Part shown: positions 5,700 through 59,463 of the stretch, piece by piece
Position numbering within the stretch: the stretch's first letter is position 1
Layout of the letters: every line of letters begins with the position of its first letter
DNA from: Patescibacteria group bacterium
Lineage (GTDB): Bacteria; Patescibacteriota; Patescibacteriia; UBA9934
Length of the DNA: 64,000 nt
Assembly (NCBI GenBank): GCA_018062825.1
Contig: JAGORL010000002.1
Location: 1,629-65,628, forward strand
Reading direction: 5' to 3'
Program-made: the position numbers and the translations under genes
Notes under the pieces: model-generated
The model's input: only the letters and a program-made list of their open reading frames with translations
Databases searched by the model: none
Told to the model about the DNA's origin: nothing

Positions 5700-6333
5700 C
5701 ACTATGGAAAAATCATACGGAAATATTGCCGCCGCTCTTATCTTCAACGGCGCCATGGTCGCACTTTTCATGCAAGCACTCTTAAGGCCAGAGGCTAATG
5801 CCGAATGGATCTTTCGAGGAGCATTTCTCATCTTCATCTTTGAGTTCTTAGCGATCTTTGCCCAACTCTGGCCTATTAAGCTCGTAGATGAATGGAAAAA
5901 GTCTGATGCTATTAAGAAAACCGGCGTCGTAGTGCAGGGCGTTATTATCTCCCTCTTTATTCTTGGCTTCACCTTTGGCTTTAGTTACCTTGCAGGCAAC
6001 GTAGCCGCCGGTGGCTACTTTGTGATCTCAATGATCGCTAAGTACGTAAGTCATGCAAAAAACGGCATGGACATGAAAGCGACCTATGCCGGTATTTTAA
6101 TCTTCATGGGAACTCTCATGGCAGTCTCGTTCACCTCCCCGGTGTGGCCAGCCATCTTTCCGTTCCCAGAGTCGGTACTCGCACAAAAAATCGACGGTTC
6201 AAGCGGTATGTTTGTCGATGCCCCGCAAGTGCAACTTGTCTGGGGAGCCCTCTACTTCCTCGGTCTCACGATGTACGAACTTAAGAAACCCATCATCGAC
6301 GCCTGGTTTACGAAGTATCAAGTAAAGAAGTAA
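5689..6333 (+). CDS. hypothetical multi-pass membrane protein
   Basis: Several hydrophobic segments. It overlaps the end of the helicase gene, so the two are probably co-transcribed; the start may be at 5704. Confidence 0.5.
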   Translation: MTVSTMEKSYGNIAAALIFNGAMVALFMQALLRPEANAEWIFRGAFLIFIFEFLAIFAQLWPIKLVDEWKKSDAIKKTGVVVQGVIISLFILGFTFGFSYLAGNVAAGGYFVISMIAKYVSHAKNGMDMKATYAGILIFMGTLMAVSFTSPVWPAIFPFPESVLAQKIDGSSGMFVDAPQVQLVWGALYFLGLTMYELKKPIIDAWFTKYQVKK

Positions 6334-6365
6334 GAAAAAATCCCGCTAGCAGGCGGGATTTTTCT
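6334..6365. terminator. bidirectional rho-independent terminator (AAAAAATCCCGC-TAGCA-GCGGGATTTTT)
   Basis: Sits between convergent genes. Confidence 0.8.
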
Positions 6366-6395
6366 ATAACGCACCAAAATCACGAACTCTTCGCA

Positions 6396-8048
6396 CTACA
6401 CAACATTTCCTCCAAAAGCCCCCAAAAGCGCATCGACCGTATTTTCTACCTGTTCACGCTTTTGAAGTACCACCTCAAGGTGAACCGGGCGCATCACAAT
6501 CGTCTCAATGCCCGCACATACCATAAGAGACGTTTTATTATCCTTGAACTTCTCAGCGTGAATAGCGTACGGAACCTCCAAGATAATACGACCTCCGGAA
6601 ACATCCGCAACCGTTGCTGTCTTCATAAGAAGCGAAACAGCCACGCTCTTCTCAGCAACAACACTAATACAGCGCCCCCACTTATCCTTAACGTCATCAA
6701 GCGTAAGCGCAGGTAGTTCAGCGCCATCAGCCGAACTAACGACAGGCTGCCTTGGCGAGCTCTCTTCTACCAGCTTGGAGCCATTTGGCGCACTTGGCGG
6801 CAAGACGGCTCTATTGGTCGGCTTTGCAAATGACGGCATCGGGGCACGCGCAGGAGCGGCGGGAGCAGCTACAGCGGCTGGCGCAGGCTGCGGCGCACGA
6901 ACAACTGGAGCCACAACAGGTGCCGACGGTGTTGCAATAGGAGCAACTGCTGCAACCGGAACGACTGGATAACAAAACCGTACAAAAGCAATCTCAAGCG
7001 GCGCTTGCGGCAAATTACCAAGCGTGGACCTAAAACGCGCCTCTAAAACAAGATCGAGGAGCGATCCAATCTCAGCCGGTTTCAAAGCCTTACTCGCCTC
7101 AGTTTGCGAGCGTCCAAGTTCAGGATCAGCGGATAAAGACGCTTGATCGCCAAGAGAAATATAAAGGGTGTCACGCACCGCCTCCGCAAGTTCATCCGCT
7201 AAATGCTTACAATTACCACCAGATTCCGTGAACGCCAAAAGCTCATTCATCGCTCCATACGCCTCGCGCTTACTTAAAGCTCGCAAGATACCAGCGATCG
7301 TTCGGGCCGCACTTTGCGGTAACAACAAAGAGGCTGTGCTCATGCCAATATGCTGCTCACCGAGTGCTAACAGCTGACCAAATAAACTCTCCGCATCACG
7401 CAAACAACCCTCAGAGCTCTTCGCAATTGCGGCAGTAACGTCATCATCCACCGTCACCGCTTCAGAAGCAGCAATCTTCTGCAAGCGCTTCATGATCTCA
7501 ACCTCTGGAATACGACGAAAATCAAAACGCTGACAACGAGAAAGGATGGTAGCCGGAATTTTATGCAATTCCGTAGTCGCTAAAATAAAAACGGCATGCT
7601 TTGGCGGCTCCTCGAGTGTTTTCAAAAGGGCATTAAACGACGACGTTGATAGCATGTGTACCTCGTCGATGATGAAGACCTTGAATTTAGCGGTGGTTGG
7701 AGCAAACCGTACGTTCTCGATGATATTTTCACGAACATTATCAACACCGGTCTGCGAAGCGGCATCAACCTCCAAAATATCCATCGCTCGACCCTCCTGA
7801 AAGGCCACACACTGCGCACAAGCGCCACAAGGCTCAAACTCCCCCTGCCCCTTACCCTCACACTGCACTGACTTAGCCAAAAGTCGGGCGATCGTGGTTT
7901 TACCCACACCGCGCGGGCCAGCAAAAAGATAGGCCTGGGCGGTTTTTCCCGAGGCAATTTGATTAGTAACTGTACGAATAACATGCTCTTGTTCGCTAAC
8001 ATCAGCGAAACGTTGAGGTCGGTATTTTCGGTAGAGTGCTTCAGCCAT
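6396..8048 (-). CDS. dnaX: DNA polymerase III subunit gamma/tau
   Basis: YRPQRFADV, GPRGVGKTT, Zn-module CxxC..C, DEVHML, and a Pro/Ala-rich linker. Confidence 0.9.
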   Translation of the reverse strand: MAEALYRKYRPQRFADVSEQEHVIRTVTNQIASGKTAQAYLFAGPRGVGKTTIARLLAKSVQCEGKGQGEFEPCGACAQCVAFQEGRAMDILEVDAASQTGVDNVRENIIENVRFAPTTAKFKVFIIDEVHMLSTSSFNALLKTLEEPPKHAVFILATTELHKIPATILSRCQRFDFRRIPEVEIMKRLQKIAASEAVTVDDDVTAAIAKSSEGCLRDAESLFGQLLALGEQHIGMSTASLLLPQSAARTIAGILRALSKREAYGAMNELLAFTESGGNCKHLADELAEAVRDTLYISLGDQASLSADPELGRSQTEASKALKPAEIGSLLDLVLEARFRSTLGNLPQAPLEIAFVRFCYPVVPVAAVAPIATPSAPVVAPVVRAPQPAPAAVAAPAAPARAPMPSFAKPTNRAVLPPSAPNGSKLVEESSPRQPVVSSADGAELPALTLDDVKDKWGRCISVVAEKSVAVSLLMKTATVADVSGGRIILEVPYAIHAEKFKDNKTSLMVCAGIETIVMRPVHLEVVLQKREQVENTVDALLGAFGGNVV

Positions 8049-13038: not shown

Positions 13039-13088
13039 AGATGTCAGCACAGTAACAGGGGCAACACACTTCATCAAATTCCCTGCCC

Positions 13089-13131
13089 ACAAAAAGAAGA
13101 CCCACCCTCGCCGTTTGGCAAAAGGTGGGTC
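13089..13131 (-). terminator. terminator of GC-rich cassette a1 (GACCCACC ... GGTGGGTC + UUCUUUUUG)
   Basis: Read directly. Confidence 0.6.
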
Positions 13132-13140
13132 GCGCGGTCA

Positions 13141-13704
13141 TCACCACGTGATGCCCACAGAAGCACCCTGGTACTCGGTACCCGTATCCACCCGCCAGCG
13201 AGGGATATCATCCCCCTCAGCGAAGGGCGAGAAGTCGATCCCGCGCTCAGTGCCACCCTGGAGTCCGAAAGCCAGATGCATCGGGAACACGACCACGGTC
13301 GTGACCACACGCTGCTGACCCGCAAACATCACCGGGCGACCAATGAGGTGAAACGGTGAGACACCGAGGTCGCTCGCGGCCACAACGAGCACGCGCGAGA
13401 ACTCCGGAAACGCCGCCGCTACGGCATTAACCGAAACTCCCTGAACGCTGTCCCGCTTCAAGTAGCGCGGCACCTCCACATCCGCCCCCACTGAGCAGTG
13501 AGGACCCTTGAGACGCATGCGACGCTCGACAAACGACCGCCTCACAACGCTCAGAACCGACCACTGCGGCACGAGCACCTGGTTCAAGGGAACGAACAAC
13601 CCATCAGCCTCCTTGCCGAGACCGGCGTAGAGAAAACGACGTCCAAACTCCTGGTGCAGGAGCACGTGCCCGAACAAGAAACCTTCTTGACCATCGTCGC
13701 TCAT
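13141..13704 (-). CDS. hypothetical protein, GC-rich cassette a1
   Basis: Start at MSDDGQEGF preceded by CTTGGAGGTG. The strongly GC-rich segment yields spurious antisense ORFs. Confidence 0.5.
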   Translation of the reverse strand: MSDDGQEGFLFGHVLLHQEFGRRFLYAGLGKEADGLFVPLNQVLVPQWSVLSVVRRSFVERRMRLKGPHCSVGADVEVPRYLKRDSVQGVSVNAVAAAFPEFSRVLVVAASDLGVSPFHLIGRPVMFAGQQRVVTTVVVFPMHLAFGLQGGTERGIDFSPFAEGDDIPRWRVDTGTEYQGASVGITW

Positions 13705-13745
13705 CTCACCTCCAAGGCGACAAGGTAGCGTAACAAAAAACACAA
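13705..13745 (-). promoter_or_regulatory. conserved cassette leader, copy a1 (CGCTACCTTG ... CTTGGAGGTG-ATG)
   Basis: Shared with leaders at 14447-14510, 20870-20898 and 45758-45813. Confidence 0.45.
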
Positions 13746-13792
13746 CAAAAAGCAAACAAAAGACTCGCCGCCCCTTCCGCAGCCGCGGAAGG
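13745..13792 (-). terminator. terminator of cassette a2 (CCTTCCGC-GGCT-GCGGAAGG + U-rich)
   Basis: 8-bp stem followed by a long T-rich run on the minus strand. Confidence 0.55.
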
Positions 13793-13810
13793 TAACGACG
13801 AGCCAGCGCC

Positions 13811-14446
13811 TCACCCGGACACGAACCGATCAACGACATCGGGTCCCTCCACGTGCCTCAGGAAGAGCGGATGAACCTGTTCGTTACGGTCGTACTGGGG
13901 CACCACAACGAACTTGCGAGTACCATCACCGTTTGCGCCCCACAGGTACAAACCGGCCTTGCGCTCCCCGTGATCACGTTCCACCTTGCGGTCGAACACG
14001 ATCGCGAAGCACTTGAGCACGTAGCGAACGCTGTGCGGATCACGCTCGAGGCGCACCAGCCGACCAAGTGACGAGAGCGGAAAGCGCGGCTCGCGCAGTA
14101 CGCCACGCAGAAGGTCGCGTCCCGTCGGCGTTGCCGCATCAAGGAAGCGTCGCCAGATATGCACGTAGGCTTCGTCATCACGCGGCAAAGCCACGATCTC
14201 GAAGCTCTGGAAAGGCTGCTCCACGCCGTTGATGGCAAAGTAGCTGCCACCGGCATCGATGAAACACTCCCGATCCGGATAGCCCGGCAAGGCTGCCGCC
14301 CGAAAGCGATCAATGCCATGCTCGGTACCCACCCGGGTGACAAAGGCCGCCACCACAGAACCACTCTCTTCCCCACGACCGTACACGACGATCGCGCTTG
14401 CTGCCGGGGCCTCACGGCCACGAGAGCTAGGCCGACTTTGACCCAT
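13811..14446 (-). CDS. hypothetical protein, GC-rich cassette a2
   Basis: Start at MGQSRPSS with RBS GGAGGGG. The alternative-frame ORF 13858-14421 has an implausible composition. Confidence 0.5.
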   Translation of the reverse strand: MGQSRPSSRGREAPAASAIVVYGRGEESGSVVAAFVTRVGTEHGIDRFRAAALPGYPDRECFIDAGGSYFAINGVEQPFQSFEIVALPRDDEAYVHIWRRFLDAATPTGRDLLRGVLREPRFPLSSLGRLVRLERDPHSVRYVLKCFAIVFDRKVERDHGERKAGLYLWGANGDGTRKFVVVPQYDRNEQVHPLFLRHVEGPDVVDRFVSG

Positions 14447-14510
14447 GACCCCTCCAGTCCTCGGGATGAATTCCCGCGCCAAGGTTAGATGAAAAATGAC
14501 AAAAACGCAA
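14447..14510 (-). promoter_or_regulatory. conserved cassette leader, copy a2 (TTGCGT-17-TAACCT; CTAACCTTGGC; ACTGGAGGGG-ATG)
   Basis: Aligned by eye with three other copies. Confidence 0.45.
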
Positions 14511-14520
14511 GGTCTTGACC

Positions 14521-15573
14521 CTATCCCTCCTTAAGGCCCAACTCCTCAAGTGCCGTTTTTTGCTGCTTACTCAACTTGGTAGGCGTTACAACCTGTACAA
14601 CCACGATTTGATCACCTCGATTACGACCATGTGGCACACCCTTACCCTTTAAGCGCAATTCGTCACCGGCTTGCGTGCCAGCAGGGATCTTCATCTCAAC
14701 CGGGCCATCTACCGTATCAATACGCACGGTGTCACCAAGAGCAGCCTGAGTAAAACCAATCTTTAACTTGGTAAAGATGGTTACGCCATTACGCGTAAAC
14801 CGTGGGTCCGGCGTCACGTTCACATCAATATATAAGTCACCCGTGTCGCCACGCACACCGATACTGTCGCCTTCACCTCGTACGCGCAAGCGAGTGTCAT
14901 CCTCAATACCAGCCGGAATATCCACCCGTACAGTTTTCTTACCCTGCACCGTACCCTCGCCGTGACACGTTGAACAAAACTTTTCAGGCTTCTCACCACG
15001 TCCTTGGCAATCATCACACGCTGCTCGCACCTGCATAGCCCCAAGCATAGTGCGCTGCACCTTGATCACATAACCGTTACCTTTACAGGTGGTACAAGCC
15101 GCCATCTTGGAACCAGGCTCCGCCGTTGTACCAGCACAACGATCACAAGTATTTGATCGATTGATAACGATCTCTTTGCTCACGCCAAAAATCGCGTCAT
15201 GAAATGAGAGCGTAACGTGAACACCAAGATCAGAGCCTCGTTCACGGCGCGTACGACCACCTCCACCCATGCCGAACATATTGCCAAAAATATCTCCCAA
15301 GTCTTCAAAACCAGCTGCTCCGCCAAATTGCGAAAAATCAAAGCCACCAGGGAATCCCCCGGCGCCTGCATCAGCTGAACCAAATTGGTCGTACCGTTGG
15401 CGCTTTTCAGGGTCACCAAGCGCCTGGTACGCCTCATTGATCTCTTTAAACTTATCGGCGTTACCACCCTTATCAGGGTGGTGTTCATGCGCAAGCTTTC
15501 GAAAAGCACGCTTAATCTCATCAGCTGAAGCCGACTTCGAAACGCCTAAAATGCTGTAATAATCTTTCGCCAC
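14521..15573 (-). CDS. dnaJ: molecular chaperone DnaJ
   Basis: J-domain with HPD; G/F region; four CxxCxGxG zinc-finger repeats. Confidence 0.9.
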
Positions 15574-15578
15574 AGAAT

Positions 15579-15803
15579 TTATTCATCAGCCTCACCGGCA
15601 CCACAATCTTCACAGTCGTCACAACAACGATCAGTATCAGACTCTTCATCGCAACAATCACAACTTTCACCACAGCTCACCTTTCCGCCATTCCCCCCTT
15701 CCGCCATTCCGCCTTTCTTCACAGGCATAGCGCAAACGCCATCATGACAGGTGGCCTTTGGTGCTTCTTTCTTTGCCCCAAACACTGACGAAAGCCATGA
15801 CAT
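15579..15803 (-). CDS. Cys/Asp-rich microprotein (74 aa), hypothetical
   Basis: [74 protein letters not shown]. It lies 5 nt upstream of dnaJ. The middle part is encoded by a GGCGGAAGGG-type repeat. Confidence 0.45.
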
Positions 15804-15806
15804 AGA

Positions 15807-15995
15807 CTATTTCTCATTAATAACCTCACCCGAAACATCAACCACCGAGGTGCCGTTCTTGCTCTTCTGTTTCACCTTTGATGACGTTCTACGCCACAAC
15901 AGAGCAACTAAGGGGACAATAACAAGTGTTATTGCTCCCCAAATAAGTTGCGCATAGTGCCCTGCTTTCTTTAATCGTAAAAGGAGGGACCACAT
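15807..15995 (-). CDS. small single-TM membrane protein (62 aa), hypothetical
   Basis: One hydrophobic helix then a basic tail; tightly packed between its neighbours. Confidence 0.35.
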   Translation of the reverse strand: MWSLLLRLKKAGHYAQLIWGAITLVIVPLVALLWRRTSSKVKQKSKNGTSVVDVSGEVINEK

Positions 15996-16000
15996 AGTAC

Positions 16001-16384
16001 TTAGGCTTGTTTCTTAGCGTCGGCAGCACTCCAAGAACACAAACGCATTGGTTCGCCACCATCAAAACGTGCCCACATGATGTACTCGCCGTTGCCAGCA
16101 ATTGGCACTCCAGGAATACGCATCACAATCTGTGCTCCAGGGCCCTTGATCACGCCCTTATAGAGATTGCCCTTCTCAACAAGCACCTTATCAGCATTTG
16201 TCATGTAAAGCTCAATCTCATGCTCTGGCGACAAACCTTCAAAACGCGTAGCAAAGAATCCGCGCAAAGCCTTGGGAGCACCAACGGCAAAGTTTGTTCG
16301 ATCAAACACATTCACAAACGTGTGCAAACCATTGACCGACAACGTCGCGAGCTCACAGAACAGTGCGTATTCTTTGGTAATCAT
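16001..16384 (-). CDS. hypothetical protein (127 aa) immediately downstream of dnaK
   Basis: ORF with plausible composition in an operon position. Confidence 0.5.
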   Translation of the reverse strand: MITKEYALFCELATLSVNGLHTFVNVFDRTNFAVGAPKALRGFFATRFEGLSPEHEIELYMTNADKVLVEKGNLYKGVIKGPGAQIVMRIPGVPIAGNGEYIMWARFDGGEPMRLCSWSAADAKKQA

Positions 16385-16410: not shown

Positions 16411-18312
16411 TTAGCTCTTCGCATCTGCGTCACCCGCATCCTTGAACTCAGCATCCTTTGGTTCAGCAGCAGCGTCAGGGGTGGCGCCAGGAGGAGGAGT
16501 TTGCTCGCCCTGCGTTGCCTGATACATCTTAGTGCCAATAGCCTGCGCATCCTTAGATAGTTCGTCGACCGCATTCTTCAAAGACTCGAGATCATCACCG
16601 TCCTTCAAGTCCTTGACGCGCTTCATCTTCTCTTCAAGATTCGTCTTTTCAGCGTCTGAAATCTTATCTTTGTGTTCGCTCATCATCTTCTCAACGGTGT
16701 ACACGGTTGTATCAGCAATATTACGAGCCTCAACCGACTCCTGCTTCTTCTTATCTTCCTCAGCATGCGTTTCGGCATCAGCCTTCATCTTCTCAATATC
16801 TTCCTTAGAAAGACCGGAGCTAGAAGTGATGGTGATGTTCTGCGTCTTGTTCGTTGCTTTATCAGTAGCTACAACCTTCAAGATACCGTTCGCATCAATG
16901 TCGAAAGTAACCTCAACCTGTGGAACGCCACGTGGTGCCGGTGGAATACCGGTCAGATCAAACTGACCAAGAAGCTTGTTGTCATTGAACATGGCGCGCT
17001 CTCCTTGGGCAACACGAATGGTAACGGCTGGCTGATTGTCAGTGGCCGTTGAGAATGTCTGTGACTTACTCGTTGGAATAGTGGTGTTACGCTCAATCAC
17101 CTTAGTAAAGACGCCACCCATCGTTTCAATACCAAGAGAAAGTGGGGCAACGTCCAAAAGCAAGATGTCCTTAACGTCGCCTTGCAAAACACCAGCCTGT
17201 ACCGCCGCACCGATTGCTACCACTTCATCCGGGTTCACGGTGACGTTTGGCTTCTTGCCAAAGAAATCTTCAACCTGCTTGAGAACAAGCGGCATGCGGG
17301 TCATACCACCAACCATCACAATCTCACCAATCTCTTGCGCGGTCATCTTGGCGTCACTAAGCGCCTTCTTAACCGGACCAAGTGTCTGAGCAACAAGTGG
17401 TGAAACAAGCTCCTCAAGCTTAGCGCGGGTAAGGGTCATCACTAAGTGCTTTGGACCTTCAGCGCCAGAAGTAATGAATGGCTGATTGATCTCAGTCTGT
17501 TGTGCTGTTGAAAGTTCGATCTTAGCGCGTTCAGCCGCATCCTTAATACGCTGCATAGCAAGCGGGTCGCCAGAGAGATCAACACCCTCCAACTTCTTAA
17601 ACTCCTCCAAGATGTAACGCATGATGGTCAAATCAAAGTCATCACCACCAAGGTGCGTATCACCGTTTGTGGCAAGCACCTCAACCGTACCCTCGGAAAC
17701 ATCAAGAACGGAAACATCAAATGTTCCACCACCCAAATCGTAAACCACAATCTTCTGACCAACCTTCTTATCAAAGCCGTACGCCAAAGCCGCAGCCGTT
17801 GGCTCGTTGATAATACGCATGACCTGCAAGCCAGCAATTTCACCAGCATCCTTAGTTGCTTGGCGCTGGGCGTCGTCAAAGTACGCAGGAACAGTGATAA
17901 CGGCCTGAGTGATCTTTTCACCAAGCTTCTCTTCCGCATCAGCCTTCAGCTTCTGCAACACCATAGCCGCAACTTCCTGTGGCGTGTGCTCTTTATCACC
18001 CATCTTTACCGCCACACCTTCACCGCGAGCAACGATCTCAAACGGCATGAGTTTAATGTCACGCTGTACCTCTTCATCCTGAAAACGGCGACCAATCAAA
18101 CGCTTCACGGAGTAAAGCGTGCTCTTAGGATTAGTAACGGCCTGTCGTTTTGCTGGAACACCAACCACACGCTCCCCCGCCTTGGTTGTGGCAACCATGG
18201 ACGGCGTGGTGCGCATACCTTCCTTATTTTCTAAAACCTTAGGCTGGCCACCTTCAAGAACGGCCATGCAGGAGTTTGTTGTACCAAGATCGATTCCAAG
18301 AATTTTTGCCAT
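16411..18312 (-). CDS. dnaK: molecular chaperone DnaK (Hsp70)
   Basis: [16 protein letters not shown], full-length Hsp70. Confidence 0.95.
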
Positions 18313-18320
18313 ACTTATTT

Positions 18321-18872
18321 TTATACTTTCGCAGGAAACTGATAGATAAATTTTAACAACATCTCAACAAAGTGAATGATTTTTTCAGCCTCGTCCCTAG
18401 TGCGACTTTGGATTTCATGATTAGCGTCATTGCCAAGCTGTCTTATTGCATCGACCCAGTCACGACTACCTGGTGGAGTATAGTGATTCTCTACAAGCCA
18501 ATTCACATATTCCGCGAATTTCAGACCTTTATCTGCACCTTGCGACACAGCGACATTCATTAATACTTTGCGCATACACATAACTGAAGCCGTATAAGCA
18601 CTTACAGAAAAAGACTTTCTTCCTTCCGTGTATATTCCAAGAACATCAGTCGGCAAATCGCTTACATCATTGCCATACGCAACTCCTGGATATTGAACCC
18701 CTTCGCCAGAAAAATAAGTCGGATGATTACAAGCGTGACAAATGTATATACTCGCATGTGGGCTAGATGCATGAGAGCCTACAAAATATCCAACATTTGA
18801 TGCCAAAGGATTATGACAATACCCACAGGTATATGATCGAGACTTAATTATATGAGTCTGTATCCAAGCCAT
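18321..18872 (-). CDS. zinc-ribbon + DUF4145-domain protein
   Basis: N-terminal CGYC ... CHAC ribbon. The C-terminus ([18 protein letters not shown] ... [15 protein letters not shown] ... [17 protein letters not shown]) matches the DUF4145 pattern (IR..GN.AAH ... LL..LY). Confidence 0.7.
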
Positions 18873-18873
18873 A

Positions 18874-19422
18874 TTACTCGCTTACCACAACCTTCGACGG
18901 ACGAATGACTAAGTCACCAAGTTTCCAACCACGCACAATCTCTTCAAGAACAACGCCAGGCTCTTTACCGTCCTCCTTACGAGAACTCGCTGACTCATGA
19001 AGCATCGGATCAAACTTGGCGCCAACGGCCACAATCGGTTCAACGCCAAGGACCTTTAAGGCTTCAGCAAACTGACGATCAATGTGCCCGATCCCTTGAA
19101 ACCACACATCAAACTTTTTCTTAGCGTCGTCTGTGAGTCCACTAACGTCCGGCACATGCTGCAAAACGTAGCCAAAGTTATCAACGACCGGGAGCAATTC
19201 TTCAGCAAGTGAGAGTTGCGCGCGACGACGATCCTCGACCCGACGCTCTGACATCTGCTTTTGAATATTCTCGTAATCAGCAAGCGCACGCTTCCAGCCA
19301 GCTAAGTATTCATCACACTTTGCTTGCAAGTCAGAGGCAGGCGCCGCGGATGCCGTTTCTGGCGCTCCTTCTGGAGTAGGTTGATCATTATTTACTGTCG
19401 TGTCCTTTTGTTCTTCATCCAT
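18874..19422 (-). CDS. grpE: nucleotide exchange factor GrpE
   Basis: Conserved GrpE core ([12 protein letters not shown] ... [18 protein letters not shown]). Confidence 0.9.
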
Positions 19423-20152
19423 AGGTTAGAGCTTGAGGTTCAATAAGACGTTTGGCGTGCATGAGAAGCGCGGCGTTATGCGCATAATCCATACGCATCG
19501 GCCCAACAATGCCCATCACACCTCTACCACCGTCTGGCAACGTATGCCCGATAACAACCGAGGCGAGCGCCGGACCAAACGGACTGTCACTCCCTAAAAT
19601 GATCTGCACATCCTCACGCGTAGTTTTAGCCATGCCGCGCAAGGTGGCATCAAGCTTCTCAAGTGAGTCAGCGAGCGCGAGGCGCGCCTGTACCTCTTGA
19701 AAGTCCGGCTTACGCAAAAGGTTAGCGATGCCGACCGTTTCACTCCACGGCCGAGTAGTAGCAAGCATAACTGCGTCTCCGGAGGCCTGCGCAAGCGCAA
19801 GACCGATTTCATGCATGCGCTCTTCAGAACTTTTCTGCCGAGGCTGAATTCTGAGCGTCACCCGGATCTGCACCGCCGGACGTGCCGGCTTAGTAGCTGT
19901 ACCGGTTGCGGGACCTACATAGGAAGCAATGTAATGCTTGTAGGCCTTCTCAGTTGGCACACGGCCAGCCGAGGTATGTGGCTGCGCAATGTACCCAGCC
20001 TCCTCAAGGGCTGCCATGTCATTACGAACCGTGGCGGGCGAGCAATCAAGATCAGCCCGTTCACAGACCTGTTTGGAACTCACAGGCTCGGCGGTACGCA
20101 CGTACTCGTCCACGATGCACTTGAGAATTCGTTCTCGTCTGGAATCCATCAT
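19415..20152 (-). CDS. hrcA: heat-inducible transcription repressor HrcA
   Basis: N-terminal wHTH ([21 protein letters not shown]) with an HrcA C-terminal domain; operon context. Confidence 0.9.
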
Positions 20153-20161
20153 AAAAGGATA

Positions 20162-20188
20162 TTAGCACTCGGTATTATAGACTGCTAA
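20162..20188. promoter_or_regulatory. CIRCE operator (TTAGCACTC-N9-GACTGCTAA)
   Basis: One mismatch to the consensus inverted repeat; directly upstream of hrcA. Confidence 0.8.
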
Positions 20189-20201
20189 ATCGGAACGTCA
20201 A
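20174..20201 (-). promoter_or_regulatory. sigma70-like promoter of hrcA operon (TTGACG-17-TATAAT), -10 inside CIRCE spacer
   Basis: Read on the minus strand. Confidence 0.6.
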
Positions 20202-20204
20202 GTG

Positions 20205-20244
20205 TATAAAAAGAGGCCCCGTGAAGCGCGTGCTTCACAGGGCC
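20205..20244 (-). terminator. terminator of GC-rich cassette b (13-bp stem with 1 mismatch + UCUUUUUAU)
   Basis: GGCCCTGTGAAGC-ACGC-GCTTCACGGGGCC on the minus strand. Confidence 0.6.
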
Positions 20245-20251
20245 TTGAGGG

Positions 20252-20869
20252 CTACCGCACAACCGAGACCGTGAGAGCGATCTCGTTGTTGCAGGGGCGT
20301 GGCATCCCCAGACCGACGTAGCTACTAGCGTCGAAGGAGATCGCCGCCCCGCCTTCGAAGATGAAGAGTGCTCGTTGCCCAGCCTCGATCTCGCCAGAAG
20401 TCGGTGGGCACTCCAGGCTCCTGGCCTCGTAGTCGAACCACTCCAGAGTCGCGGTTCGACCACGCAATCGGATGCGCGGGCCGTCGATCTGAGTGACGAG
20501 GACACGTTGATCGTCGTGCGCTACGAAGCGCGGGATAACCATGTGCGCCCCTCGGCGCATGATGTAGGTGATGCCGATGCCGTGGAAGTCCTCCGGCTTC
20601 GGCAGGTGAATCACCCGCTGCTTGGGAACCGCGAGCTCGAGCACGAGCTCGTACTGCACACCGGAAGACGTACGCCTTCCTTGCCGCTGTCGGCGACGCT
20701 GAGAACGAACCTCCTTGCCCTGGGCAGACTCTCCGTCGATCACCCGGACACGGAAGCTGATGATCCGGTGGATCATCGCCAGTTGATCATAGGCCCCGCA
20801 CCGTGCGTAAGGCCCCTCCTTGCTGTTGCTCGACCCTGTGGAATCACGGGTCGCTGGCATGCCACACAT
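20252..20869 (-). CDS. hypothetical protein, GC-rich cassette b
   Basis: Start MCGMPATRD preceded by ACTGGAGGG; no recognisable domain. Confidence 0.5.
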   Translation of the reverse strand: MCGMPATRDSTGSSNSKEGPYARCGAYDQLAMIHRIISFRVRVIDGESAQGKEVRSQRRRQRQGRRTSSGVQYELVLELAVPKQRVIHLPKPEDFHGIGITYIMRRGAHMVIPRFVAHDDQRVLVTQIDGPRIRLRGRTATLEWFDYEARSLECPPTSGEIEAGQRALFIFEGGAAISFDASSYVGLGMPRPCNNEIALTVSVVR

Positions 20870-20898
20870 TGGCCCTCCAGTAAGGCCAAGGTTAGCGG
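20870..20898 (-). promoter_or_regulatory. conserved cassette leader, copy b (TTGCGC-17-TAACCT; CGCTAACCTTGGCC; ACTGGAGGG-ATG)
   Basis: Aligned by eye with the other copies. Confidence 0.45.
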
Positions 20899-20931
20899 AA
20901 AAACAAAAAGAGCGCAAGACCGCGCTCTTTC
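20898..20931 (-). terminator. terminator of PP2C gene (AAAGAGCGC-GGTCTT-GCGCTCTTT + UUGUUUUU)
   Basis: Read directly. Confidence 0.75.
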
Positions 20932-24565: not shown

Positions 24566-24871
24566 AAATACGGCCTTATCGTCTAGCGGCTATCCGGCAA
24601 AGCCGGACCCGGCTCTGCCGGGGGACGTCATATGTACATCGTCTATATACTTTCGTCCGAAAGCAATAATCGCTGGTACATTGGAATGACTGCAGACATT
24701 AAGGTTCGTTTAGGTGAACACAATGCAGGTCGCGTGCGCTCCACAAAGCCATATGTTCCGTATCGCATTATTTATACGGAAACATATCCAGACAAAACAA
24801 CTGCGCGGAAAAGAGAGATTCAGATTAAAAAATCTGGATTAATCCGCAAGCAGTTAAAAGACAGGATTACC
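24566..24871 (+). mobile_element. 306-bp GIY-YIG mini-element inserted at the 5' end of tRNA-Glu, bounded by 26-bp direct repeats (24566-24591 and 24872-24897)
   Basis: The repeat AATACGGCCTTATCGTCTAGCGGCTA covers the first 21 nt of the tRNA. Two tandem hairpins (TCCGGCAAAGCCGGA, CCCGGCTCTGCCGGG) precede the ORF. Confidence 0.45.
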
Positions 24872-24898
24872 AATACGGCCTTATCGTCTAGCGGCTAG
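24632..24898 (+). CDS. GIY-YIG nuclease family protein (small, YhbQ/UPF0213-like)
   Basis: MYIVYIL ... WYIGMT ... R ... EHN ... motif set. The stop codon TAG lies inside the D-arm of tRNA-Glu. Confidence 0.8.
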   Translation: MYIVYILSSESNNRWYIGMTADIKVRLGEHNAGRVRSTKPYVPYRIIYTETYPDKTTARKREIQIKKSGLIRKQLKDRITNTALSSSG

Positions 24899-24951
24899 GA
24901 CGGCACCCTCTCACGGTGCAGACCCGGGTTCGATTCCCGGTAAGGTCACCA
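24877..24951 (+). tRNA. tRNA-Glu (anticodon CUC)
   Basis: Acceptor GGCCTTA/TAAGGTC (one G-U), anticodon stem GCACC/GGTGC, loop CTCTCAC, T-arm CCGGG-TTCGATT-CCCGG, CCA encoded. Confidence 0.85.
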
Positions 24952-43657: not shown

Positions 43658-44527
43658 CTATTGATTGAACACGACATTAGCCTCGTACTCCTGCCCTGAC
43701 TCATTAGCTTCGATTGTAAGACGGGCTCGATCCCCAGTTGGCAGCAAGAAATCAATACCTGAAGCCGTGGTTACGATGTTAGAAAACAGCGGTGTCGTCA
43801 TCTGGCCGTCAACATCAATACATGGCACCCGTTTTGCAATCGGAAGTGCAAAAACGAGTGGCACCACCTGCGTCGAGATCGATGAACTTAATACAACTCC
43901 TGACACCTCCGCTGTCGCGCCTTGCTCTTGTGAACATTCCTCCGTCACATATAAATCAACCGTATCGTGCGCAGGATAAAGAATCGCGTTGAATTTTATC
44001 TTCTCTAAGCCCCAACCCCTCTCAGAACGCATCCTTAGGACATCGAATCCCGATTGATCAAATGCAATTTCAAGATATTCGCCCACCTCTGGAGCACCAT
44101 TCCACATTGAAAATGTATGCGAACCATCTTCATTTTTTACAAAACCAAAAACTTTTCTAATCGGACTCAATGCAACAGTATAAACAACCTCCTCTTCACC
44201 GTTTTGAATATTTTTACGATTAAGTTGATATAAATATCCCCCATCATTCTCAACTACCTCGTCAGAAAAGAAAAATTCACCAATACTATATTCGAGACCT
44301 CGAATCTCATTCTCAACATTCAAGATAGCGTTCTCTTGCTTAAGAATTTCGTTTTCAATGCCGACGGCATGCATCCTCTCGCCCATAGCGCCCAAGCTCT
44401 CACGAAGATAGATAGTTACAAAAATCAAAACAAGTACCGCAGCAGCTGTCGACAAAAAAGCTAATAACAAAGCAACAGACACCCCGAGCAAACCGTTGCT
44501 CTTCTTTACCACTTTTTTGTTCGCCAT
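43658..44527 (-). CDS. hypothetical membrane-anchored protein with coiled-coil segment
   Basis: 289-aa ORF. Confidence 0.45.
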   Translation of the reverse strand: MANKKVVKKSNGLLGVSVALLLAFLSTAAAVLVLIFVTIYLRESLGAMGERMHAVGIENEILKQENAILNVENEIRGLEYSIGEFFFSDEVVENDGGYLYQLNRKNIQNGEEEVVYTVALSPIRKVFGFVKNEDGSHTFSMWNGAPEVGEYLEIAFDQSGFDVLRMRSERGWGLEKIKFNAILYPAHDTVDLYVTEECSQEQGATAEVSGVVLSSSISTQVVPLVFALPIAKRVPCIDVDGQMTTPLFSNIVTTASGIDFLLPTGDRARLTIEANESGQEYEANVVFNQ

Positions 44528-44542
44528 ATTATCAACGAGTAT

Positions 44543-44582
44543 AACAGAAAACGACCCCCGCTCCAGGTGAGCTAGGGGTCGT
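44543..44582 (-). terminator. terminator of GC-rich cassette c (ACGACCCC ... GGGGTCGT + UUUUCUGUU)
   Basis: Read directly. Confidence 0.6.
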
Positions 44583-44590
44583 GAGTGGGT

Positions 44591-45757
44591 TTACGCCGCC
44601 GCGATGATCGGCTTCACCGCGTTGTAGACCGCCTTGGCGTTCAGACCAGGCCGAGCGAGCTCGCCCTGGAGAACCATGAACTGACCGCGCATGCCAGGCA
44701 GAACCGGGCGCTCGAAGTCGTCGTCCGTGAGGTCGGTCGAACCAAGCGCGTAGGCGATGTCGCCGGCAGTCGCGATCGCGTTGCGGCGATCGATGTCAGA
44801 GAGCGGCTGATCACGCTCCTTCGCGACCGAGGCGACGGTGAGCACTTCGTCGAGACTCTCGCGGATGGCGAGGATCTCGAGCGAACGACGCACCTTGTCG
44901 ACGTGCACGAACGCCGTGATGAGATCACCGGTCTTGATCGCCTCGATGGCGATCTTGAGGTCGATCACGTCACGCACGAACGAGCGGCGGCCGTCCGGAG
45001 CGATCACGATCGCGTTCAGGATGGCGACCTGCGCCTCGAACTGCTGCACGTAGTAGCTCTGGGTCTTGAGCTTCTCCGGCTCACGGCGCCAGCGCAGGAA
45101 CGCCTGCGTGACCCGCATGAGCTCCGAGCGTACTCCATCGAGCTGATCGCGGATGGCGAGCAGCACACGGGCGCGGACGTCGATGAACGCCCCGATCCGC
45201 CGCATGTTGCCCTTGCGAGTCGCGAGACGGTGCTCCGCCGACCAGATGATCGGCAGCCGAGACATCGGGTTCACCCGCTTGATCGAATCCTTCGGAAGCG
45301 CCGCCCGACCGGTCTGGTCGCGCGCGTACATCTTCGATTCGTCACGGAAGTGCGGGTGCTTGGCGTAGAAGTCCTCCATCTGCCGCCGCACCATGTTCTG
45401 TTCGTCGATCGGCAGGCGCTGCAGATCGACGAACACCGAGTACCCCCACGCGAGGGTGCCGAGCCACGCCTTGATCTGCGTCTCCTCGTCCTCGTAGCTG
45501 TTCGGCACGTGCCGGGCAACCGCGCGGATCGCCGAGTACAGACCATCGTTGTACGTGGAGAAGGCGCCGCTCTCCTGGTTGTAGAGGAGCACAGCACCCT
45601 TCTTGATCTCCCCCGCCGCCACCGCGGCAATGAGCACACGCCCCGGCAGGGGCTCCTTCACGGCGAGGGCCACATCGCCCTCCTTGACCGTGATCTTTCG
45701 CTCGACGATCTGCCCGTTTCCGGGGATTCGACCGTCAGTACCAGTACGCACGTCCAT
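44591..45757 (-). CDS. hypothetical protein (388 aa, largely helical), GC-rich cassette c
   Basis: Minus-strand frame has a protein-like composition. The plus-strand 395-aa ORF is an R/D/L/H-rich antisense artefact. Confidence 0.5.
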   Translation of the reverse strand: MDVRTGTDGRIPGNGQIVERKITVKEGDVALAVKEPLPGRVLIAAVAAGEIKKGAVLLYNQESGAFSTYNDGLYSAIRAVARHVPNSYEDEETQIKAWLGTLAWGYSVFVDLQRLPIDEQNMVRRQMEDFYAKHPHFRDESKMYARDQTGRAALPKDSIKRVNPMSRLPIIWSAEHRLATRKGNMRRIGAFIDVRARVLLAIRDQLDGVRSELMRVTQAFLRWRREPEKLKTQSYYVQQFEAQVAILNAIVIAPDGRRSFVRDVIDLKIAIEAIKTGDLITAFVHVDKVRRSLEILAIRESLDEVLTVASVAKERDQPLSDIDRRNAIATAGDIAYALGSTDLTDDDFERPVLPGMRGQFMVLQGELARPGLNAKAVYNAVKPIIAAA

Positions 45758-45813
45758 GCCACCTCCAAGTGATTGGCGGCTGAAAGGTTAGCGAAATTTT
45801 AGAACTTTGTCAA
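45758..45813 (-). promoter_or_regulatory. conserved cassette leader, copy c (TTGACA-17-TAACCT; TCGCTAACCTTTC; CACTTGGAGGTGGC-ATG)
   Basis: Aligned by eye with the other copies. Confidence 0.45.
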
Positions 45814-56424: not shown

Positions 56425-56790
56425 ATGACCCTTTTTCTGCTCTTTTTCGCCTGTATCATCCCCCCACAGGAAGATCTCACCACTGCTACGTCACCGGCCG
56501 CCAAGACCAAAGCGGAGCCGACTGCCGAAGTCATCGATCACAAACCCATCGGTAAGATCGCCTGCGCCGAGATGGAGCGCGTCACCTGGAAGGGTGACGT
56601 CTGGCTTACCGGAGGCGATGAACCTACCCTCGCCTACATCGAAGAGGTCGCAGATGGGAAGAAAGTGGCCTGTGCCCTCGCCTGGCCATTTCGCCACCCG
56701 AAGTTCGCGGAGTTCTCCTTCTGCGAGAAGCGAAGCGGGCGTGGCGAATGCATCACCGTGCACCCCGAGCTCGAGACGCTCGACGAATAA
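56425..56790 (+). CDS. putative lipoprotein, hypothetical
   Basis: Signal-like N-terminus ending in FFAC (lipobox-like). Confidence 0.45.
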   Translation: MTLFLLFFACIIPPQEDLTTATSPAAKTKAEPTAEVIDHKPIGKIACAEMERVTWKGDVWLTGGDEPTLAYIEEVADGKKVACALAWPFRHPKFAEFSFCEKRSGRGECITVHPELETLDE

Positions 56791-56803
56791 ACTCTGCAAC
56801 ACA

Positions 56804-56840
56804 AACGCCCGACGGCTATCCGTCGGGCGTTCATCTTTTT
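56804..56840. terminator. bidirectional terminator (AACGCCCGACGG-CTAT-CCGTCGGGCGTT + CATCTTTTT)
   Basis: 12-bp perfect stem. Confidence 0.8.
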
Positions 56841-59463
56841 AACTCGATGATCCAGGAACTACCACATGTACCTGACCACCAGCATCGTACACAATTTTAT
56901 CGCGTCGCTTCACCTGCTGAGTAAGAATCAGATCAGCTACCGCATTCTCTACTCGCTCTTGCATAACACGCCGCAAAGGTCGCGCGCCAAACTTTGGATC
57001 ATAGCCTGCTTCAGCAAGCTCATGAAGCGCGGCGTCGGTAATTTCAAGCACCATGCCCTGCTCTTCAATACGCTTGGCGAGCGACTTGGTCATCAAGTAG
57101 GCAATCGCCACTACATCCTCTCTGGTTAATGGCGTAAAGACGATCAGATCATCAAAGCGATTTAAAAACTCCGGTCGGTACACGTGTCGCAATTCACCAT
57201 TCACAAGCGCCTCCTTTAGCGCCTCAGGTGACGTTCCCTTAACAACTTCATCTTGAATGTAAACAGCGCCCACGTTTGAAGTAGCAATGATGATCGCATT
57301 AGTAAAGTCAACCGTTCTGCCAAACCCGTCAGTCAACCGACCATCATCAAGCACCTGCAAGAAAAGATTAAGCACATCAGGGTGCGCCTTCTCTAACTCA
57401 TCAAGCAAAATAAGGGAGTACGGCGAGCGGCGTACAGCCTCCGTAAGTAGTCCCGCCTGACTATTCCCACCAACAAGCCGCGTTGAAGACGTGGCATCTT
57501 GATACTCGCTCATATCAAAACGCAACATAGCGTTTTCATTCCCAAAGAAAACTTCAGCGGTCGTTTTTGCAAGCTCAGTCTTACCAACACCAGTTGGACC
57601 AAGGAATAAAAACGCCGCAATCGGTCGCTTATCGCTACGCAACTTGGCACGAGCACGCCGAAGCGCCGAAGAGACGGCTTTTACCGCATGCTCCTGACCG
57701 ATAACGCGTGCATGAAGCTGCTCTTCTAAGTGCAGAAGCTTCTGACCTTCATCTTGCGTAACTGTCGTGACGTTTACTTTGGCTTTCTGAGAAACAAGTT
57801 CCGCTACATCCTCTTTCGTGATCCAGGCAAGTTTTTGACCACGCTTCGCTACAAAAAGCGCTACTTCTTTAGCAAGTTCAATCGCGCTCTGCGGCATAGC
57901 AACGTCATGCAAATAGCGTGTAGCAAAATCTACAACCGATGCTACTGCTGCATACGTAAAAATAACTTGGTGCTTGGCTTCGATCGCACCAACCTTTGCT
58001 TCCAAAATACGAATCGCGTCCTGAGCGAGCGGCTCACCAATATCAACACGCGAGAGCGCCGGGCCAAGCACGGAGCGCTCCAGAACATTGGCGTACGCCT
58101 CAGGCGTGGTGGTAGTAATGGCAAACGTATAACCCCGACTAAGCTCTTGCACAAGAACGCTCGCTAAATCAATCGAACCTCCCGCACCAACAAGTTCATG
58201 CACGTTCTCAATCACAATAATCACGTTGCCGGCCCGTGCCGCCTCACGCAGTGCATACAAAAATCGCTCATCAGCACTCCCCTGGCCAGAACTAATGATG
58301 TGCGGAACGGACAATCGCAACAATCGCTTATCAGCAAGTTGCCTTGGAACACGCTCTTCCACCATTAAATCAGCTAAGCCATCAATGAGTGCGCTTTTGC
58401 CACTACCCGGCTGCCCAACTAAAACCACACTCTTTTCACCACCCTCAATAGCACGCAGCATGTTGGCCATCTCCTGATCTCGCCCAACAAGAAGCGCCGT
58501 GCGGCCGTACACCGCTTGGCGAGTAACGTCTTCAGATACCGCATCAAGAAACGGCGTAGCAACAGCTGTCATCGCGCGATCAAGATTGCCCGTTGGTTTA
58601 AAAGCAGCCGCAGCTCTAAAAGCCTTATAGCGAGCGACAAGTTCATCAGAAATATGCAGCCAGGCAATCGCGTGCTCCATGTCACTGGCGGTCACGGCAT
58701 GATCGGCAAAAATCTCTTGTGTAAACTCATCAGCGGCAAAAGATGCCGCAAAAAGATCAAGCGCTGTCACCTGCTTACGACCACCCCGAGCCGCTAATGC
58801 AAACGCTTGCGCCACGAGCGCTCGCCCGGCTTCTGAAAAATGCGCCTCACCCGCCACACCACCCTGCATACGAATAGCAAGCGGATCTTTAAGGTACGAG
58901 CTTGGCAAACCAAGACGCGCTAAAAGCGTCCGAACACTCACGGAGGATAGCGCCGCCGTAATAACATGCTCAGCATTCACCTCCACCGCCTGCGCGGTAT
59001 CTGCAATCACAAGTGCGTCCTCAATAGCTTGCCAAGCATCAGCCGAAAATACCGTTGCAATATCTCGACTGCCCGTAGGCGGCATGCCGACAGTGACAAC
59101 CTCCGGAACCTCCTCATGCTTTGATCGAGCAATAAGCGCATGCTCATCTTCCGGCATTTTTGAAAGATATGCACCAAACAAACCAGACATAACACCAGCT
59201 CCCAAAGCAACAAAGGCTGGATTAGCAGACGTGAAGTAAACATCAATCGGCACAACACCCTGACCTTGATAAAGAGCAAAGTCGACAATAACAGCTCCAA
59301 CGCCAAGAAGCGCGCCAGCGTACGCCAAGGTCCTCAACATGCCGCGGCCACGAATCCTCCCTAAGCGTGACGCAATAGTTGCCGGCGTAATCTCAGGATG
59401 AAAATACCAAAATACTCCTTGGTATTGAACGCCGGTGATGTCTGTTGGCATGGCGGAAATCAT
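56839..59463 (-). CDS. Clp-family AAA+ chaperone (ClpB/ClpC-like) with N-terminal membrane-spanning segment
   Basis: Two AAA modules (GQPGSGKS ...; LFLGPTGVGKTELAKT), sensor and ClpB_D2-small regions. The first ~100 aa contain 2-3 hydrophobic helices. Confidence 0.85.
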   Translation of the reverse strand: MISAMPTDITGVQYQGVFWYFHPEITPATIASRLGRIRGRGMLRTLAYAGALLGVGAVIVDFALYQGQGVVPIDVYFTSANPAFVALGAGVMSGLFGAYLSKMPEDEHALIARSKHEEVPEVVTVGMPPTGSRDIATVFSADAWQAIEDALVIADTAQAVEVNAEHVITAALSSVSVRTLLARLGLPSSYLKDPLAIRMQGGVAGEAHFSEAGRALVAQAFALAARGGRKQVTALDLFAASFAADEFTQEIFADHAVTASDMEHAIAWLHISDELVARYKAFRAAAAFKPTGNLDRAMTAVATPFLDAVSEDVTRQAVYGRTALLVGRDQEMANMLRAIEGGEKSVVLVGQPGSGKSALIDGLADLMVEERVPRQLADKRLLRLSVPHIISSGQGSADERFLYALREAARAGNVIIVIENVHELVGAGGSIDLASVLVQELSRGYTFAITTTTPEAYANVLERSVLGPALSRVDIGEPLAQDAIRILEAKVGAIEAKHQVIFTYAAVASVVDFATRYLHDVAMPQSAIELAKEVALFVAKRGQKLAWITKEDVAELVSQKAKVNVTTVTQDEGQKLLHLEEQLHARVIGQEHAVKAVSSALRRARAKLRSDKRPIAAFLFLGPTGVGKTELAKTTAEVFFGNENAMLRFDMSEYQDATSSTRLVGGNSQAGLLTEAVRRSPYSLILLDELEKAHPDVLNLFLQVLDDGRLTDGFGRTVDFTNAIIIATSNVGAVYIQDEVVKGTSPEALKEALVNGELRHVYRPEFLNRFDDLIVFTPLTREDVVAIAYLMTKSLAKRIEEQGMVLEITDAALHELAEAGYDPKFGARPLRRVMQERVENAVADLILTQQVKRRDKIVYDAGGQVHVVVPGSSS

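Follow-up and report, generated by a model that had tools for sequence, protein, structure and literature searches.

How did a gene with a defence-associated domain come to lie between grpE and dnaK of a heat-shock operon, and does it belong there? The question is raised by an open reading frame (ORF) of 183 amino acids (aa) at 18321..18872 on the minus strand of a stretch of contig JAGORL010000002.1, from the Patescibacteria group bacterium assembly GCA_018062825.1. The whole stretch that was analyzed, 64,000 nucleotides (nt) long and covering positions 1,629 to 65,628 of the contig, is referred to as the window, and all coordinates are those of the window. The explanation that was considered probable is that a RAZR-family gene was recently transferred as a bare ORF into the 10-nt spacer between grpE and dnaK, that it is transcribed from the CIRCE promoter of the operon, and that its placement was opportunistic.

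Identification of a RAZR/PD-T7-4-like protein

The domain content of the protein was determined by a profile hidden Markov model search, in which DUF4145 (Pfam PF13643) was matched at residues 85-170 with E=1.2e-11 and 44.9 bits against a cut-off of 23.1. An NCBIfam scan returned no match. The N-terminal zinc-ribbon domain comprises residues 1-60 (18693..18872, minus strand) and carries two CxxC knuckles, at 18816-18827 (CGYC) and 18729-18740 (CHAC); all four cysteines of these pairs, C16/C19 and C45/C48, were invariant in 46 homologues. Residues 61-74 (18651..18692, minus strand) form an inter-domain linker in which P62, G67, and P74 are each at least 90% conserved. The C-terminal DUF4145/HEPN domain, residues 75-183 (18324..18650, minus strand), contains the motif R144-x3-N148-x3-H152 at 18417-18443, and these three residues are conserved in 85%, 93%, and 96% of the homologues, respectively. 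Mean column conservation was 0.63 in the HEPN domain, 0.53 in the linker, and 0.45 in the zinc ribbon (0.40 between the CxxC pairs), the zinc ribbon being the least conserved region of the protein. In the AlphaFold2 model (pLDDT 93, pTM 0.85), four beta-strands are followed by five helices, and the CxxC pairs are located between strands 1/2 and 3/4; the zinc-ribbon part of the model has pLDDT of about 83-95.

The length of the product was also considered. The public annotation, MBP9827958.1 (161 aa), begins at an internal TTG (L23) and loses codons 1-22 (18807-18872) together with the first CxxC knuckle. Because the alignment to homologues begins at residue 1-3 and takes in the conserved W3, C16, and C19, the 183-aa form was taken as the real product. 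The 183-aa form is on record as a gene product, and the 161-aa form annotated by NCBI is not.

The same two-domain architecture is found in a known anti-phage protein. PD-T7-4 was discovered through a functional selection in E. coli (PMC9519451) and was later renamed RAZR, for ring-activated zinc-finger RNase (PMC13017515). In RAZR, a Cys4 zinc-finger domain at the N-terminus is joined to a DUF4145 domain, a divergent HEPN RNase, at the C-terminus, and defence depends on R146 and H154 (PMC13017515). The protein forms higher-order oligomers and is activated on binding around ring-shaped phage proteins, namely Gp77 and the portals of T7, T3, and SECphi18, after which it cuts single-stranded RNA and aborts infection; RAZR alone is not toxic (PMC13017515). 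Its linker is conserved and needed for function, while the zinc ribbon is a variable region tied to trigger specificity (PMC13017515).

The relation of the window protein to RAZR was evaluated by several sequence and structure comparisons. The PADLOC model of PD-T7-4 matched residues 9-172 with E=1.1e-9. A profile built from the 46-sequence homologue alignment (A1) matched chain OA of PDB 9y9c, the RAZR:Gp77 complex, across both domains with E=5.5e-5. When the RAZR sequence of E. coli (RAZR_Ec), in the form of the fragment displayed in the 9y9c profile-search output, was compared by hhalign, the probability was 95.8% and E=8e-9 over 137 columns. Pairwise BLAST against RAZR_Ec gave 26% identity over 81 residues. 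When the PDB was searched by phmmer with the single sequence, no match was obtained, and RAZR was reached only by the 46-sequence profile. For the model, the top Foldseek match in the PDB was 9y9c_OA with a probability of 0.99, and HepT HEPN toxins came next.

The alignment pairs C16/C19 with C16/C19 of RAZR, C45/C48 with C49/C52, E83/R85 with E88/R90, and R144/N148/H152 with R146/N150/H154. R144 and H152 share the R-x7-H spacing of the catalytic R146 and H154, while D179, D180, and R184 of RAZR_Ec fall past the alignable region. Sequence and predicted fold place the protein at a distance within the RAZR/PD-T7-4 family, in a separate, large subfamily. The defence association proposed for its domain can accordingly be given a name, as the protein is identifiable as RAZR/PD-T7-4-like. 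From this homology, we infer an RNase activity, a phage trigger, and a defence function for the window protein.

Recent insertion between grpE and dnaK

The history of the site was reconstructed from the grpE-dnaK junctions of relatives. A GrpE scan of GTDB representatives returned only distant relatives (at most 42% identity), and the close strains came from a protein database search. One of them, L151 (Logan SRR26424693), was aligned with the window by blastn at 97.75% DNA identity over 3071 nt ending at 18873, and the alignment continued at 18323 with 98.1% identity. The adjacent L151 positions 3071 and 3072 align to 18873 and 18323 of the window, and the N-terminus of DnaK is identical across 117 residues. 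At the L151 junction, GAG-TAA-TTAAACATAT-ATG-GCA, grpE and dnaK are 10 nt apart (grpE-TAATTAAACATATATG-dnaK). A second strain, L160 (SRR17347193), shows only 78-86% DNA identity, yet it carries the identical 10-nt spacer TTAAACATAT. Since the same spacer occurs in two strains about 20% apart, independent precise deletions can be set aside, and the empty site is ancestral.

The other relatives gave the same picture. In L152-L155 (66-69% GrpE identity), hrcA, grpE, and dnaK follow one another with a grpE-dnaK gap of 27-148 nt and no extra gene, and in L010, a Falkowbacteria metagenome-assembled genome (MAG) that is the closest GTDB representative, hrcA, grpE, and dnaK were matched with no room for a gene between them. 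A RAZR-like gene at the grpE-dnaK site was absent from all of these loci and from every other grpE locus examined.

The segment missing from L151 and L160 (18324..18872, minus strand) is 549 nt long, which is exactly 183 codons, and the stop codon of the gene corresponds to a TAA that the empty spacer also contains. Ahead of the dnaK ATG, the window reads TAA-AAATAAGT-ATG, whereas L151 and L160 read (T)TAA-ACATAT-ATG. The insert is compositionally foreign, with a GC content of 0.404 and a GC content at third codon positions (GC3) of 0.310, compared with a GC3 of 0.44-0.55 in the flanking genes. A search of the flanks for direct repeats, inverted repeats, or a target-site duplication was negative, and no recombinase gene was found in the operon. 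No recombination tract was visible around the insertion, the density of single-nucleotide differences being even on both sides at about 2.2-2.7%. An integron cassette, an insertion sequence, or another defined mobile element was considered and rejected because the insert consists of the ORF only, with no defining site (attC, terminal repeats) and no integrase or transposase. On these comparisons, the gene is a recent, horizontally acquired, strain-specific insertion and not a regular part of the operon, and the window strain gained it after diverging from L151 by about 2%.

Genomic contexts of the homologues

A search recovered 1729 representatives of this large subfamily (clusters at 50% identity) with E<=1e-3; the number falls to 254 when E<=1e-30 is required, and almost all are of about 190 aa. 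As the A1 alignment was too diverse for a locus search, a 10-sequence alignment (A2) was used for that purpose. In total, 119 homologue loci were collected from metagenomes, viral contigs, and look-ups, and 74 of them exceed 4 kb. DnaK, GrpE, HrcA, or DnaJ was found near the homologue in none of the 119 loci. No conserved partner was recognized, as 125 of 148 neighbour proteins were singletons. The recurrent neighbour families were phage integrases, terminases, and portal proteins; Mrr, a reverse transcriptase, a methylase, and a transposase each occurred as single cases, along with assorted housekeeping genes. The median gap between a homologue and its neighbour was 137 nt, and both gaps were at most 30 nt in none of the 49 loci with two neighbours. 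Such large gaps and the lack of a fixed partner indicate that a typical member of the subfamily stands alone as an autonomous gene flanked by intergenic regions of its own. The promoterless, embedded copy in the window is atypical for the subfamily.

Homologues were present on 30 viral contigs, as well as in Lactobacillus phage KC5a and a Terrisporobacter phage, and the 183-aa protein itself matched phrog_1305 with E=9.5e-28. On several viral contigs (L125, L129, L134), and likewise at L139 and L148, only 21-90 nt separate a RAZR-like homologue from adjacent portal and large-terminase-like genes, and these portal and terminase neighbours belong to the class of proteins that triggers RAZR. The nearest homologue outside the population of the window strain is about 53% identical; thus, the donor is unsampled.

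The sequence-only reading of this DNA had regarded the gene as a constitutive member of the Hsp70 operon. This view did not hold, as the gene is missing from L151, which is about 98% identical, from L160, and from the other relatives, and the homologue loci show no association with dnaK or grpE. The dnaK operons of relatives were checked for the insertion, and every relative examined was without the gene.

Probable transcription from the heat-shock promoter

The window contains one tightly packed minus-strand cluster in the order promoter/CIRCE, hrcA, grpE, the 183-aa ORF, dnaK, three small ORFs, and dnaJ. The sigma-70-type promoter of the hrcA operon is located at 20174..20201 (minus strand; TTGACG-16 nt-TATAAT) and agrees with the consensus at 11 of 12 positions. 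It is overlapped by a CIRCE operator at 20162..20188, TTAGCAGTC-N9-GAGTGCTAA, a putative HrcA binding site with one mismatch to the consensus where 0.01 such sites would be expected by chance. The two elements are read on the same strand, and the -10 box TATAAT falls within the 9-nt CIRCE spacer. With this layout, bound HrcA would block the promoter directly. The CIRCE element with its embedded TATAAT is conserved in the relatives L151, L160, L152, and L155.

All genes of the cluster lie on the minus strand. The hrcA gene (19415..20152, 245 aa; Pfam HrcA E=2.8e-12, HrcA_DNA-bdg E=5.8e-6) overlaps grpE by 8 nt, and grpE (18874..19422, 182 aa; Pfam GrpE E=1.1e-33) is followed by the RAZR/PD-T7-4-like gene (18321..18872, 183 aa plus stop), which is listed as an ORF and supported by the Pfam, PADLOC, profile, and fold matches. 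A spacer of 8 nt, AAATAAGT (18313..18320), which is unlike the ancestral one, separates it from the ATG of dnaK (16411..18312, 633 aa; Pfam HSP70 E=3.7e-256). The last recognizable gene of the cluster is dnaJ (14521..15573, 350 aa; Pfam DnaJ, DnaJ_CXXCXGXG, and DnaJ_C).

The position of the gene between grpE and dnaK in a CIRCE/HrcA-type operon, which the sequence-only reading had proposed, agrees with these Pfam matches and with the near-perfect CIRCE element. That reading had also described tight packing, with an 8-nt gap at the start of the gene. The packing is as described, but the gap was misplaced: the start lies 1 nt past the grpE stop (TAA-T-ATG), and the 8 nt separate its stop codon from the dnaK ATG. 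With 1 nt on one side and 8 nt on the other, there is no room for a promoter of its own. A consensus scan of the minus strand between grpE and dnaK (18.3-19.4 kb) revealed no promoter-like or terminator-like site, in keeping with the earlier expectation that the gene has neither of its own. The 1-nt and 8-nt spacers and the lack of consensus signals strongly suggest that the RAZR-like gene is co-transcribed with hrcA, grpE, and dnaK from the heat-shock promoter.

Permissiveness of the grpE-dnaK junction

An interrupted grpE-dnaK junction is not unique to the window. Unrelated cargo of 0.4-2.3 kb was found between grpE and dnaK of other Patescibacteria and of some Rhodospirillales MAGs, including an opposite-strand PaaX-like regulator, a DUF7718/DUF5647 pair, an AAA_18 kinase, a GrpB protein, and a KAP NTPase. 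What is unique to the window is the RAZR-like cargo and its same-strand packing with near-zero spacers. Judging by this other cargo, accessory or conflict-type genes seem to be tolerated at the junction, which may even attract them.

Some of these loci were inspected individually. A KAP-family P-loop NTPase occupies 5875-7455 of locus L039, a Rhodospirillales MAG, and the DUF7718 and DUF5647 gene pair occupies 5520-6073 of L011, a Paceibacterota MAG. A conserved protein of about 175-190 aa lies between grpE and dnaK in divergent orientation in L011 (6270-6845), L013 (5745-6284), and L016 (6203-6724), on the opposite strand and upstream of dnaK. The L011 copy matches the central Cas2-like domain of PaaX in Pfam, and the L013 and L016 copies resemble it by sequence. 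In these three Patescibacteria loci, neither a CIRCE match nor a tblastn match to HrcA was obtained. In these lineages, dnaK may be regulated by the PaaX-like protein instead.

Interpretation and alternative explanations

According to the preferred explanation, a recent horizontal transfer brought in the gene as an ORF and nothing more, which entered the 10-nt grpE-dnaK spacer. Without a promoter of its own, it would be transcribed with hrcA, grpE, and dnaK from the CIRCE-controlled promoter, and its translation would probably be coupled to that of grpE through the TAA-T-ATG arrangement. The product would be a latent RNase that is activated through its zinc ribbon by a phage-encoded, probably ring-shaped, assembly, whereupon the DUF4145/HEPN domain would cleave RNA and abort the infection. 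The placement is read as opportunistic because a promoterless ORF can be maintained only at sites that the host already transcribes and at which the insertion is non-polar, sparing the essential genes. Given that RAZR alone causes no toxicity (PMC13017515), expression at the level of a chaperone operon is plausible without harm to the host.

However, several points weigh against this explanation. The identity to the characterized RAZR_Ec is only about 18-26%, and the global superposition on 9y9c_OA is poor (TM 0.37), probably due to a differing orientation of the domains. With such low identity and poor superposition, the trigger and the oligomeric state may differ from those of RAZR_Ec. The insertion is carried by one population only, so purifying selection is not measurable. 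Moreover, the promoter and terminator scans were based on consensus patterns, from which Patescibacteria signals may deviate.

The placement could instead be adaptive, either by making defence infection- or stress-inducible through HrcA de-repression or by letting DnaK and GrpE manage oligomers of the RAZR-like protein. In the first case, phage structural proteins made in bulk would titrate the chaperones, the CIRCE promoter would be de-repressed, and the RAZR-like protein would rise while its likely ring-shaped triggers build up. An adaptive placement was considered unlikely. HrcA repression needs free GroEL, as established in Bacillus, and this dependence speaks for an adaptive placement. 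So do the placement of the gene under a conserved CIRCE/promoter unit, its likely translational coupling, and a packing that is atypical for the family, given that none of the 49 loci has both gaps this short. The portal-type rings that trigger RAZR and its lack of toxicity when alone (PMC13017515) also fit. Set against this, the arrangement occurs in one lineage only, none of the 119 homologue loci is near dnaK or grpE, and near-identical strains manage without the gene. The unrelated cargo between grpE and dnaK elsewhere is more readily explained by a permissive site than by a specific partnership. A precedent was also lacking in limited literature searches, which yielded no relevant report of HrcA or dnaK linked to phage defence, of a defence gene in a CIRCE operon, or of abortive infection in Patescibacteria. 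The functional coupling of a stress or defence function to chaperone expression, which the sequence-only reading had put forward, is an idea drawn from a single lineage and is possible but unsupported.

The presence of the gene in one sampled population and a composition that has not been ameliorated toward the host would also suit a transient passenger, neutral or slightly harmful, that is non-functional in this host and will be lost. This is improbable, as the frame is intact, every invariant and catalytic residue is kept, and the fold model is of very high confidence; a costly insertion upstream of dnaK would be selected against, and the exact match of the insert to the ORF suggests a selective filter. 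Alternatively, the protein could be a stress RNase or toxin without a role in defence, tuning RNA turnover or growth under heat shock; it would be co-expressed with the heat-shock genes, and HEPN RNases do act as toxins in HepT/MNT systems, the next-best fold matches. Such a role appears still less probable because no MNT or other antitoxin partner is present at the window or the homologue loci, the full RAZR architecture including the sensor zinc ribbon is retained, the family context is one of mobile elements and prophages, and the gene is missing from sister strains that share the heat-shock operon. Finally, the source is a MAG and the GC content of the insert is foreign, as might be expected of an assembly or binning chimera at the junction. 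The Logan assembly of SRR11088367 (6.7 kb) and a second NCBI assembly (1.4 kb) reproduce both junctions at 100% identity, and the reading frames abut precisely. Since independent contigs span both junctions, the junction is not an assembly artefact, and a chimera is hardly credible. The opportunistic insertion of a RAZR-family gene was therefore retained as the best explanation.

Significance

The defence system is of a known kind, and what is new is a distant member of it, an unusual and well-documented setting, and a pair of filled and empty alleles. The filled and empty grpE-dnaK sites form a natural near-isogenic pair with about 2% DNA difference, and they document the recent gain of a putative anti-phage gene in a Patescibacteria lineage. 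A defence gene can thus sit in an essential housekeeping operon without any mobile-element signature, where guilt-by-association searches would miss it. The RAZR family is extended to a large, distant subfamily of hundreds of clusters, some of them on phages, and its members are candidates for evaluating the generality of ring-triggered activation. Heat-shock control, should it prove functional, would tie abortive infection to the sensing of proteostasis. A further idea, which was judged rather improbable, is that a RAZR-type RNase has been captured under HrcA/CIRCE so that the chaperone-titration sensor doubles as an infection sensor, and, more broadly, that promoterless, ORF-sized defence genes may spread into essential operons of streamlined genomes of the Candidate Phyla Radiation (CPR), leaving neither repeats nor a recombinase. 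If this were true, promoterless defence genes in essential CPR operons would escape defence-island searches.

Other features of the window

Three small minus-strand ORFs lie between dnaK and dnaJ, at 16001..16384 (127 aa), 15807..15995 (62 aa), and 15579..15803 (74 aa). The 62-aa ORF looks like a membrane protein, and the 74-aa ORF is rich in cysteine. Neither the 127-aa nor the 74-aa ORF was matched in Pfam, NCBIfam, or PHROG; the 62-aa ORF had no match in NCBIfam, the sole library scanned for it. ORFs of similar size occupy the dnaK-dnaJ gap in relatives, namely 126 and 58 aa in L155, 127 and 79 aa in L160, and 92 and 58 aa in L152. These small ORFs may be lineage-specific members of the operon.

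Against a mean GC content of 49% in the window, patches of at least 59% were observed at 13051-14550, 20201-20900, 44501-45800, 6651-7000, and 56451-56850. The patches at 13051-14550 and 20201-20900 flank the dnaK cluster. Both open just past the stop of the upstream gene with a shared 34-nt motif (14478-14511 and 20885-20918; 79% identity) and are otherwise unrelated. The ORFs of the two flanking patches gave no family match, although in L151 and L160 a gene of about 203-205 aa is called for the ORF in the patch upstream of hrcA. An Rfam search, at both the gathering and the E-value thresholds, detected only two tRNAs in the window and nothing in the GC-rich patches. An 88-aa ORF at 24632-24898 (plus strand) resembles a GIY-YIG nuclease by eye, and its 3' end overlaps a tRNA-Glu(CTC) gene at 24877-24951 (plus strand).

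Comparison with known systems

The operon can be compared with the canonical hrcA-grpE-dnaK-dnaJ operon of Bacillus subtilis, with which it shares the gene order, the HrcA repressor, and a CIRCE element over a sigma-70 promoter. The window cluster differs from it in the foreign, putative defence gene between grpE and dnaK and in the three small lineage-specific ORFs between dnaK and dnaJ.

Among HEPN proteins, the HepT-type toxins of HepT/MntA (PDB 5yep, 6m6w, 7bxo, and 7ae6) have the helical HEPN fold and an R...H motif in common with the window protein. The latter differs in its extra zinc ribbon, in the R-x7-H spacing in place of the canonical R-x4-6-H, and in having no adjacent MNT antitoxin gene. 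A HEPN-MNT toxin-antitoxin system was rejected, as the neighbours are grpE and dnaK and the homologue loci have no conserved partner.

Within the subfamily, orf31 of Lactobacillus phage KC5a is a full-length homologue with 44.6% identity over 100% of the query. This protein and PHROG 1305 are labelled just 'DNA binding protein', with no assigned defence role, and they are found in phage genomes and not in a host operon. Their homology to the window protein indicates that the subfamily circulates on temperate phages.

The closest functional counterpart is RAZR of E. coli UMB1727 (PDB 9y9c). The two proteins share the Cys4 zinc ribbon, the conserved linker, the DUF4145/HEPN domain, the length class, and the variability of the zinc ribbon, as well as the E-x-R and R-x3-N-x3-H motifs and a first CxxC at the same positions (C16/C19). 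RAZR_Ec and the subfamily of the window protein are both single-gene systems that are often located on mobile elements or prophages. The window protein is shorter than RAZR_Ec (183 vs 219 aa) and is without its C-terminal extension. Moreover, RAZR_Ec has its own promoter and an adjacent integrase, whereas the window copy is promoterless within a Patescibacteria dnaK operon and has no adjacent mobile-element gene.

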